IMG/VR virus record: IMGVR_UViG_2585427750_000020 | Direction: 5' to 3' (one strand) | From: a virus | Lineage: Duplodnaviria; Heunggongvirae; Uroviricota; Caudoviricetes | Length of the DNA stretch: 10,372 bases | Shown here: positions 3,109 through 3,378 of the stretch, piece by piece | Layout: each line of letters opens with the position of its first letter | Position numbering within the stretch: the first letter of the stretch is position 1 | Translations under genes and position numbers: made by a program | The notes under the pieces: generated by a model | The model's input: the letters and a program-made list of their open reading frames with translations, nothing else | Database searches by the model: none | Told to the model about the DNA's origin: nothing

Positions 3109-3378
3109 TTACTTCATCCCGCCAATATTTTCCCACGTCCCGTCAGCACGCAGGATTTGCAGCGGTCTTACCACACACTGTATCAGCTTTTTATCTGTAT
3201 CCAGTATCACCACCTGTGTGATTACCCTGTCCTGCTCCGGAATAATGCCATTCTCATCTGACTCCAGGATGTCTGCCGGCCCCAGTCGCAGTTGTGCTGT
3301 AAGCGACTGCACGTGTTCACGGCCATCATGCTTTCCGCAACCACACAGACGCTGCATAAGTTTTTTTAGTATATTCAT
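3109..3378 (-). CDS. Hypothetical 89-aa protein, translationally coupled to stf; C-terminal ~57 aa paralogous to the Stf C-terminal domain
   Basis: ATG at 3378..3376 follows an AGGAGA Shine-Dalgarno 5 nt upstream and lies 1 nt after the stf TGA. The 133-aa track ORF is an upstream extension overlapping stf in another frame. Residues 29-85 (QLRLGPADILESDENGIIPEQD...LQILRADGTWENI) align by eye with Stf RFRLGPASIIETNSNGWFPDTD...LQVRFGDGPWQDV. Confidence 0.6.
   Translation of the reverse strand: MNILKKLMQRLCGCGKHDGREHVQSLTAQLRLGPADILESDENGIIPEQDRVITQVVILDTDKKLIQCVVRPLQILRADGTWENIGGMK

Follow-up and report, generated by a model that had tools for sequence, protein, structure and literature searches.

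We examined a 10,372-nucleotide stretch of Caudoviricetes DNA (IMG/VR record IMGVR_UViG_2585427750_000020, referred to here as the window), which covers the distal tail region of a lambdoid prophage of the enterohaemorrhagic/enteropathogenic Escherichia coli (EHEC/EPEC) type, its genes being read on the minus strand. Directly downstream of stf, the gene of a collagen-like side tail fibre, lies a small open reading frame (ORF) of 89 amino acids (aa), in the slot that in phage lambda holds the tail fibre assembly gene tfa. The protein encoded by this small ORF is a free-standing paralogue of the knob domain that ends the fibre itself. It is conserved, in strict synteny with stf and under purifying selection, and peptides of its orthologue from phage phi24B are present in a virion preparation. 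With a probability of about 0.5, we consider it to be a co-translated accessory subunit of the distal knob of the fibre, serving as a cap, as a non-essential assembly helper or as a small piece of the tip.

The small ORF encodes a stand-alone copy of the fibre knob domain

The small ORF runs from an ATG at 3378-3376 to a TAA at 3111-3109, on the minus strand. A first-pass annotation of the window, made by reading the sequence alone, had described an 89-aa ORF with its ATG 1 nt past the stf stop and preceded by a Shine-Dalgarno (SD) sequence, and we found it as described, the strand having been left unstated. An alternative, longer reading gives 133 aa from a TTG at 3510; the 89-aa start is supported by the SD, by the RefSeq annotation and by an end-to-end match to PHROG 576, in which residues 1-89 align with positions 1-89 of 89 (E 2.1e-58). 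In Pfam, residues 28-89 match Phage_fiber_C (PF06820, here PfC) over the whole profile (positions 1-64 of 64), with E 1.8e-34 and 118.4 bits, the gathering cut-off of the family being 25 bits. The protein is 100% identical to the product of a coding sequence annotated in E. coli RM12761, which RefSeq names "phage tail fiber C-terminal domain-containing protein" (WP_001023459.1), and its orthologues include gp59 of phi24B and L0122 of 933W.

Stf, which has 437 aa when counted from the ATG at 4693 as annotated in relatives, consists of a phage_tail_N domain (Pfam, residues 3-135, E 3e-68), an Ala/Ser-rich coil, Gly-X-Y repeats of collagen type (Pfam Collagen, 253-311 and further) and a Phage_fiber_C domain, whose residues 365-428 cover all 64 positions of PF06820 (E 2e-36). 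BLASTP aligns residues 29-88 of the small protein with Stf residues 366-427, with 23 of 62 positions identical (37%; E 1e-11 in a single comparison), close to the 40% or so estimated by eye in the first-pass annotation. Because both proteins also match the full PF06820 profile, this likeness is far above chance, and the two domains are paralogous. The N-terminal 28 residues of the small protein, on the other hand, have no counterpart in Stf, again as first proposed. Pfam, PHROGs and RefSeq already record this protein together with its domain and position, the exact sequence is present in hundreds of genomes, and the relationship to the Stf knob is implicit in the database name; the initial insight was correct, not new.

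The same annotation held that the product does not look like a classical Tfa, and the family searches agree. Apart from PF06820, nothing in Pfam matched the small ORF at E<=1, Tfa-type families such as Caudo_TAP included, and the Gp38_N attachment domain (PF21721) was absent from the Pfam result. No NCBIfam family matched at E<=0.1, the PHROG matches were confined to families labelled 'tail fiber protein' with no Tfa or chaperone family among them, and a PDB sequence search returned nothing at E<=10.

The stretches of stf and of the small ORF that encode PfC are about 53% identical at the DNA level (aligned columns) and no DNA repeat was detected between them; the duplication is therefore old, and a recent cassette copy is ruled out on the same two grounds. 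A diversity-generating retroelement was rejected as well, since the two stretches are far from near-identical and no DNA repeat links them. An invertible fibre-end cassette of the Mu Gin, P1 Cin or e14 Pin type was likewise rejected: the small ORF lies in direct orientation with its own start, and the sole inverted repeat found, 18 nt with a 78% match, is at chance level. Neither a reverse transcriptase nor an invertase was found among the eight larger window ORFs scanned against NCBIfam, a scan that did not search the window exhaustively.

Natural chimeras of the two paralogues occur. In protein P0066 (L089, 4-291) the collagen repeats of Stf are joined straight to the PfC domain of the small ORF (…GERGPADILESDENG…), and P0121 combines the N-terminal 40 residues of the small ORF with the C-terminal half of the PfC domain of Stf. 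An identical 11-nt stretch, CTGGGGCCGGC, which encodes LGPA, is a likely crossover point for at least some of these chimeras. A distant collagen-containing protein of 565 aa, P0147, carries four tandem repeats of about 82 aa, the C-terminal halves of which match the second half of PF06820 (VVVLDAD…LQVRRADGTWMEIPALKG; E 1.6e-15); PfC-like modules can therefore follow one another along a fibre. In 15 of 84 related loci the small ORF has a second match. In eight of them this match, about 690 bp downstream, covers the 3' half (residues 37-85, 73-76% identical) in degenerate form (L008 2128-2274; L014, L015, L021, L043 and L049 3954-4100; L022 and L026 3955-4101); in L014, the one locus inspected, it stands after a 180-aa ORF. 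These degenerate second copies look like a recombination scar at the edge of the effector/cargo region.

The junction with stf has the layout of termination-reinitiation

The combination of a UGA-C stop, a single-nucleotide spacer and a well-placed SD (5 nt from the ATG if read as AGGAGA) fits the classic arrangement in which ribosomes would terminate and reinitiate, and the translational coupling proposed in the first-pass annotation is in line with it. For comparison of this and other features we assembled 85 loci in all, made up of 80 IMG/VR loci and reference loci and including the window. The 30-nt junction that ends in GGAGAATGAC, immediately before the ATG, is identical in 81 of the 85, and two further loci carry one synonymous change in it, GAA to GAG. 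The heptamer GAATGAC is also kept in two loci in which an element of the IS66 insertion sequence family has replaced everything upstream, the insertion lying exactly before it.

Past the stop of the small ORF, the RNA of 3115..3050 folds with -24 kcal/mol (z -3.3; 0 of 200 shuffles as stable) into an 11-bp stem followed by UUUUUGUUGU. Direct folding revealed this hairpin (3064..3094), which a simple consensus terminator scan did not list, and the small ORF is therefore probably the last gene of the fibre unit. With a second, terminator-like hairpin upstream of stf (4710-4731), it brackets the genes in such a way that stf and the small ORF appear to form a two-gene unit; a scan of the minus strand between 2900 and 4800 gave no promoter-like site. 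Near its start the small ORF has an A7 run (codons 4-7, CTAAAAAAACTT, window 3358-3369).

The small ORF is conserved, under purifying selection and paired with fibres of this type

The small ORF is intact in 85 of the 85 loci, which represent 57 distinct nucleotide alleles. Its ratio of nonsynonymous to synonymous differences (Nei-Gojobori pN/pS) is 0.13 overall, 0.32 over residues 1-28 and 0.08 over the PfC part, with a pS of 0.12, whereas the last 75 codons of Stf give 0.28. The small ORF is a real late prophage gene under purifying selection. The frame of stf, in turn, is disrupted in 17 of the 75 loci with enough upstream sequence, in two of the 17 by an IS66-family element. At codon 81 of the small ORF (window 3136-3138, RADG-T-WEN) at least five states were seen among the nucleotide alleles (T, R, K, A and M), with V in some loci, and the equivalent Stf residue is Pro; this residue may be a single site under diversifying selection.

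By tblastn, the PfC domain of Stf and the small ORF were each found in 296 phage records, which break down by organism in the same way; wherever the coordinates of the listed matches can be cross-checked, the two adjoin each other, so that the pairing noted in the first-pass annotation extends to relatives. Of the 5,426 complete E. coli genomes searched, 698 have the small ORF, at 6,771 places in all and with a median of 11 per genome, and 697 have the Stf-PfC, at 6,160 places. The carriers include Stx1 and Stx2 (Shiga toxin) phages, VT1-Sakai and VT2-Sakai, 933W, Min27, P27, phage 2B8 and the laboratory hybrid lambda h434 imm21, and therefore plaque-forming phages of both siphovirus and podovirus form. 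The family has a very narrow range: in a profile search of 1.84 billion cluster representatives, 88 proteins reached E<=1e-3, and almost all of these were fragments from Escherichia.

The block made of collagen repeats, PfC and small ORF is common to lambda-like siphoviruses and to podoviruses of the 933W/phi24B type, in which the fibres attach to different tail proteins. Since the block moves as a unit between the two forms, the small ORF is tied to the distal end of the fibre and not to the tail body. Covariation between the alleles of Stf-PfC and those of the small ORF is weak (mutual information <= 0.2 bit) and not robust to multiple testing.

Two outlying copies deserve a comment. In Citrobacter rodentium the locus has decayed: stf is a remnant with in-frame stops, and the small ORF has lost one base in the A7 run (L085 3480-3500), with a restart at the equivalent of Met8. 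We discarded this copy as an independent test of conservation owing to the decay of the locus. A scan of genome contigs yielded two loci only, one of which is a 725-bp contig filed as Xanthomonas pisi DSM 18956 (NZ_JPLE01000138.1, L004); its stf 3' end is of the E. coli type, its small ORF is 91% identical, and it is probably assembly contamination.

The N-terminal leader contains an invariant cysteine motif

In an AlphaFold2 monomer model of the small protein, residues 3-12 form a helix, and its leucines at 4, 7 and 11 are so spaced that they could take part in a short coiled coil. The model is unconfident over residues 13-26, next to and within the motif C12-G-C14-G-K-H17-D, with the predicted local distance difference test score (pLDDT) below 50 for residues 10-23. 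Residues 27-84 form an all-beta domain (mean pLDDT of about 60-77 in blocks of 10 residues), in agreement with circular dichroism of PfC, which indicates little helix.

The stretch C12-G13-C14-G15-K16-H17-D18 (window 3325-3345) is invariant across the 85 loci, and residues 19-29 vary. The first-pass annotation had pointed to a Cys/His cluster in this region that could bind a metal. The CxC pair and H17 stand as part of that proposal, but H22 does not: some alleles carry N at this position, or C in place of R20, so that the loci do not all keep a fixed four-ligand Cys2His2 site. In a trimer, the cysteines may form a staple between chains or a metal site.

Published data on the fibre and on the virion proteome

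The fibre upstream of the small ORF corresponds to EPclA, which has been characterized biochemically. When expressed by itself in E. coli, recombinant EPclA is soluble, trimeric and dumbbell-shaped, with a genuine triple helix in the collagen part, and its isolated PfC (residues 363-426) is itself trimeric and nucleates rapid refolding of the helix; the small ORF downstream of EPclA receives no mention in that work (Ghosh et al. 2012, PMC3368898). Since EPclA trimerizes without it, the small protein is probably not an obligatory folding chaperone. Our literature search found no paper addressing the function of the small ORF, and the Eligo Stf-chimera paper and the Ur-lambda structure paper held nothing relevant to it.

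A 2026 preprint describes the cryo-EM structure and proteome of phi24B, in which gp61, a homologue of EPclB, makes up the six lateral fibres; only its N-terminal 141 residues are resolved, no confident AlphaFold model of the distal domain was obtained, and the main text is silent both on the small ORF and on a gp61-gp59 fusion entry (bioRxiv 10.64898/2026.04.10.717836). The supplementary proteome of gradient-purified virions nevertheless lists two peptides unique to gp59, VITQVVILDADKK and ADGTWENIGGMK (bioRxiv 10.64898/2026.04.10.717836). They correspond to residues 52-64 and to the C-terminal residues 78-89, the latter identical in the window. Each has three spectral matches, against 47 for the neighbouring, C-terminal gp61 peptide GLDEVGSDTGR and 2,267 for gp61 in total; for comparison, the authors dismissed Lom, with 23 matches, as a contaminant (bioRxiv 10.64898/2026.04.10.717836). 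The phi24B orthologue is thus translated, as the first-pass annotation would have it, and gradient-purified virions contain it, though how much is uncertain and the level is low.

The database searched in that study also held a hypothetical gp61-gp59 fusion, 'Fusion_6159_FS1', with the row label 'Spike or just gp59?' (bioRxiv 10.64898/2026.04.10.717836). The positions of the two peptides in it, 698-710 and 724-735, match a chain of 645 + 1 + 89 residues, as a +1 shift at the stop codon would produce. The junction peptide of such a fusion, TGEDMNILK, is absent from the portion of the supplementary listing that was examined.

Comparison with known fibre partners

Measured against PHROG 576 and PF06820, the small ORF is a plain member, matching the one over its full length and the other over the full domain, with no difference in sequence. 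In relation to the EPclA/EPclB fibres, phi24B gp61 among them, the upstream Stf is EPclA, with a PfC knob paralogous to the domain of the small ORF. The latter lacks the PfN domain, the coiled coil and the collagen, and has instead the 28-residue leader with the helix and the CGCG motif.

With lambda Tfa and T4 gp38 (Caudo_TAP) the small ORF shares the slot (here with a 1-nt gap after stf), co-expression with the fibre and, if our reading is right, the distal fibre end as a partner. It is only about half as long as the roughly 190-aa lambda Tfa and has no sequence similarity to it. It also differs in its homology to the tip domain of the fibre itself, a relationship that Tfa lacks, and in belonging to a fibre that trimerizes in its absence (PMC3368898).

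Tip adhesins of the Gp38 type are also small, separate tip proteins encoded in an equivalent slot. A case in point is Stx2-86, a sister Traversvirus (L090 9174-11816), in which a Peptidase_S74 intramolecular chaperone domain forms the end of the equivalent collagen-like lateral fibre, gp21; next come gp22, with the adhesin-attachment domain Gp38_N (PF21721), and the cor gene. The small ORF has no homology to these adhesins, as exemplified by T2, S16 and Stx2-86 gp22; they are variable receptor binders, whereas its domain is more conserved than the tip of the fibre that precedes it.

A further parallel is Alteromonas phage A5, in which the protein encoded downstream is conserved and has been proposed to cap the tip, although the fibre does not need it for folding (PMC10579305). 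The case of the small ORF is similar, a conserved partner of a self-folding fibre, with the difference that the A5 chaperones are not knob copies but look like intramolecular chaperone domains; homology between the two is not expected.

An accessory subunit of the distal knob and its alternatives

The mechanism that we favour would begin at the junction. Ribosomes ending stf at UGA-C would reinitiate at the ATG 1 nt downstream, aided by the AGGAG inside the last stf codons, and the small protein would thereby be made along with the fibre. The stand-alone PfC, behind its short helix and invariant Cys-Gly-Cys-Gly leader, would self-trimerize and might dock on the fibre tip, acting as an accessory and not as an obligatory folding chaperone. 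We prefer an accessory role to that of an essential foldase because PfC is a demonstrated trimerization knob and because EPclA trimerizes without the small ORF. In favour of the reading as a whole are also the shared PF06820 domain, the intact frames and low pN/pS, the strict synteny, the passage of the block between phage forms, the gp59 peptides, the terminator past the small ORF and the slot itself, which holds a Gp38_N-type adhesin in Stx2-86 and tfa in lambda. Of the roles suggested in the first-pass annotation, tip module and chaperone are both live options.

Several observations weigh against this reading. With only three matches for each gp59 peptide, the protein could be sub-stoichiometric or a contaminant. 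The PfC of the small ORF is more conserved than that of Stf, which is unusual for a tip that contacts a receptor. The alleles of stf and of the small ORF are freely shuffled with no clear covariation, and the small ORF remains intact in prophages with a broken stf, which could point to a role independent of the fibre. In addition, the AlphaFold2 monomer is of low overall confidence (pLDDT 63.5), and fold searches found nothing.

The accessory-subunit reading has a bolder form, which we regard as unlikely. In this form the small protein would represent a novel type of fibre partner, a free knob paralogue that self-trimerizes through its helix/CGCG leader and stacks on the Stf knob, or that a +1 shift at GAA-UGA-C joins to that knob in a small share of the chains, so that some or all fibres would be double-knobbed.

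Lower again we place a free knob with no part in the fibre, whether as a soluble decoy masking the fibre receptor on lysing cells and debris or with a role in the lysogen, the gene bordering type III effector cargo. The retention of the small ORF where stf is broken, and the lack of allele matching between the two genes, would be expected of such a protein. Yet collagen repeats make stf prone to frameshifts and assembly errors, which weakens the argument from intactness, the tight coupling to the stf stop points to late-gene control, and the stretch scanned showed no promoter-like site. Inspection of MNILKKLMQRLCGCGK revealed no signal peptide, lipobox, hydrophobic leader or membrane segment, and there is no PADLOC match for the small ORF; a lipoprotein or secreted product and a role in anti-phage defence were accordingly rejected.

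An obligatory Tfa-like chaperone, needed for Stf to fold and trimerize and then released, is less probable than the free knob. It would explain the tfa position and the trace amounts in virions, and one curated record (lambda h434 imm21, OM418627) does say 'tail fiber assembly chaperone'. The behaviour of the recombinant fibre argues otherwise, given that EPclA expressed by itself gives soluble trimers in which the collagen helix is folded and that its isolated PfC trimerizes and nucleates refolding (PMC3368898); nor is the small ORF similar to any Tfa or Gp38 family.

We give little credence to a programmed +1 frameshift at the stf stop as the main way of expression. Here GAA-U-GAC would be read through, giving Stf-Asp-Met-Asn-Ile... 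with two tandem PfC knobs, and the small ORF would be mainly an extension module. UGA-C is a weak termination context in E. coli, as in the prfB paradigm, and the frame offset is exactly +1. The 'Fusion_6159_FS1' entry and its peptide positions, equal to 645 + 1 + 89, agree with such a fusion, the low gp59 peptide counts would suit a minor product, and P0147, with four tandem PfC-like half-domains, offers a precedent. The details of the site speak against it. The P-site GAA (GAG in two loci) cannot re-pair in the +1 frame (AAU), unlike the CUU-U of prfB. Frameshifting in prfB needs a 3-nt spacer between the SD-like element and the shift codon, whereas here the AGGAG ends 2 nt before the UGA and overlaps that codon. 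Moreover, the ATG and the well-spaced AGGAG are conserved, as for independent initiation, and the junction peptide TGEDMNILK is missing from the portion of the phi24B peptide listing that was examined.

Finally, a decaying relic of an old duplication or cassette exchange that hitch-hikes with stf, the leftover envisaged in the first-pass annotation, is hardly credible: the chimeras P0066 and P0121, the degenerate 3'-half copies about 690 bp downstream in some prophages and the decayed C. rodentium copy speak for it, but the gene is intact in all 85 loci and 57 alleles with a pN/pS of 0.08-0.13 at a pS of 0.12, its PfC stretch is only about 53% identical to that of stf in DNA, its start, SD and spacing are conserved, and its peptides have been detected.

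Genomic setting of the window

The features discussed above and their neighbours are collected in Table 1. The closest complete genomes are those of O145:H28 strains (98.7% over 1.9 kb), where an identical gene order is annotated. Of the two effector genes that follow the fibre unit, cif is truncated: the window ORF has 207 aa, shares 99% identity with the first 204 residues of Cif from E. coli RM12761 (275 aa), diverges after residue 204 and directly adjoins the IS2 TnpA gene (834-1244).

Table 1. Features of the window (10,372 nt), in the order in which they are read on the minus strand.
Feature	Position	Strand	Details
Tip attachment protein J	8926..5450	-	NCBIfam lambda_TipJ, E 0
Lom/Ail-like outer membrane protein	5417..4758	-	
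Terminator-like GC-rich hairpin and T-run	4710-4731	-	between the lom-like gene and stf
stf, collagen-like side tail fibre	3380..4699	-	EPclA architecture; 439 aa from GTG 4699
PfC domain of Stf (residues 365-428)	3416..3607	-	Pfam E 2e-36; pN/pS 0.28 over last 75 codons
Shine-Dalgarno AGGAG	3385..3389	-	inside last stf codons (GGA GAA); 6 nt before ATG
stf stop and spacer	3379..3382	-	TGA 3382-3380, single spacer C 3379, then ATG; UGA-C context
Small ORF, stand-alone PfC-domain protein	3109..3378	-	89 aa + TAA; ORF list, PHROG 576, RefSeq
N-terminal 28 residues of small ORF	3295..3378	-	no Stf counterpart; predicted helix, CGCGKHD motif, low-confidence linker
PfC (PF06820) domain of small ORF (residues 29-89)	3112..3294	-	Pfam, BLASTP, pN/pS 0.08, AlphaFold2
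Hairpin and T-run, likely intrinsic terminator	3064..3094	-	15 nt past small-ORF stop, before nleH
NleH, type III effector kinase	3012..2122	-	
cif	834-1898 region	-	interrupted at about residue 204 by IS2 element

Implications

As an annotated member of a known family, the small ORF opens no new category, and it is a reasonable small target for experiments; the sole direct evidence for its protein sits, unremarked, in the phi24B supplement. Both Shiga toxin phages and the lambdoid prophages through which type III effectors spread carry the collagen-like fibres that it accompanies, and the gene pair is found in about one in eight complete E. coli genomes. A conserved and probably co-translated copy of the knob, present in virion preparations, may be a missing piece in accounts of the host range of these phages and of the spread of stx and effector genes. 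If the double knob proved true, it would set what the collagen-like fibres of prophages carrying Stx and effectors bind.

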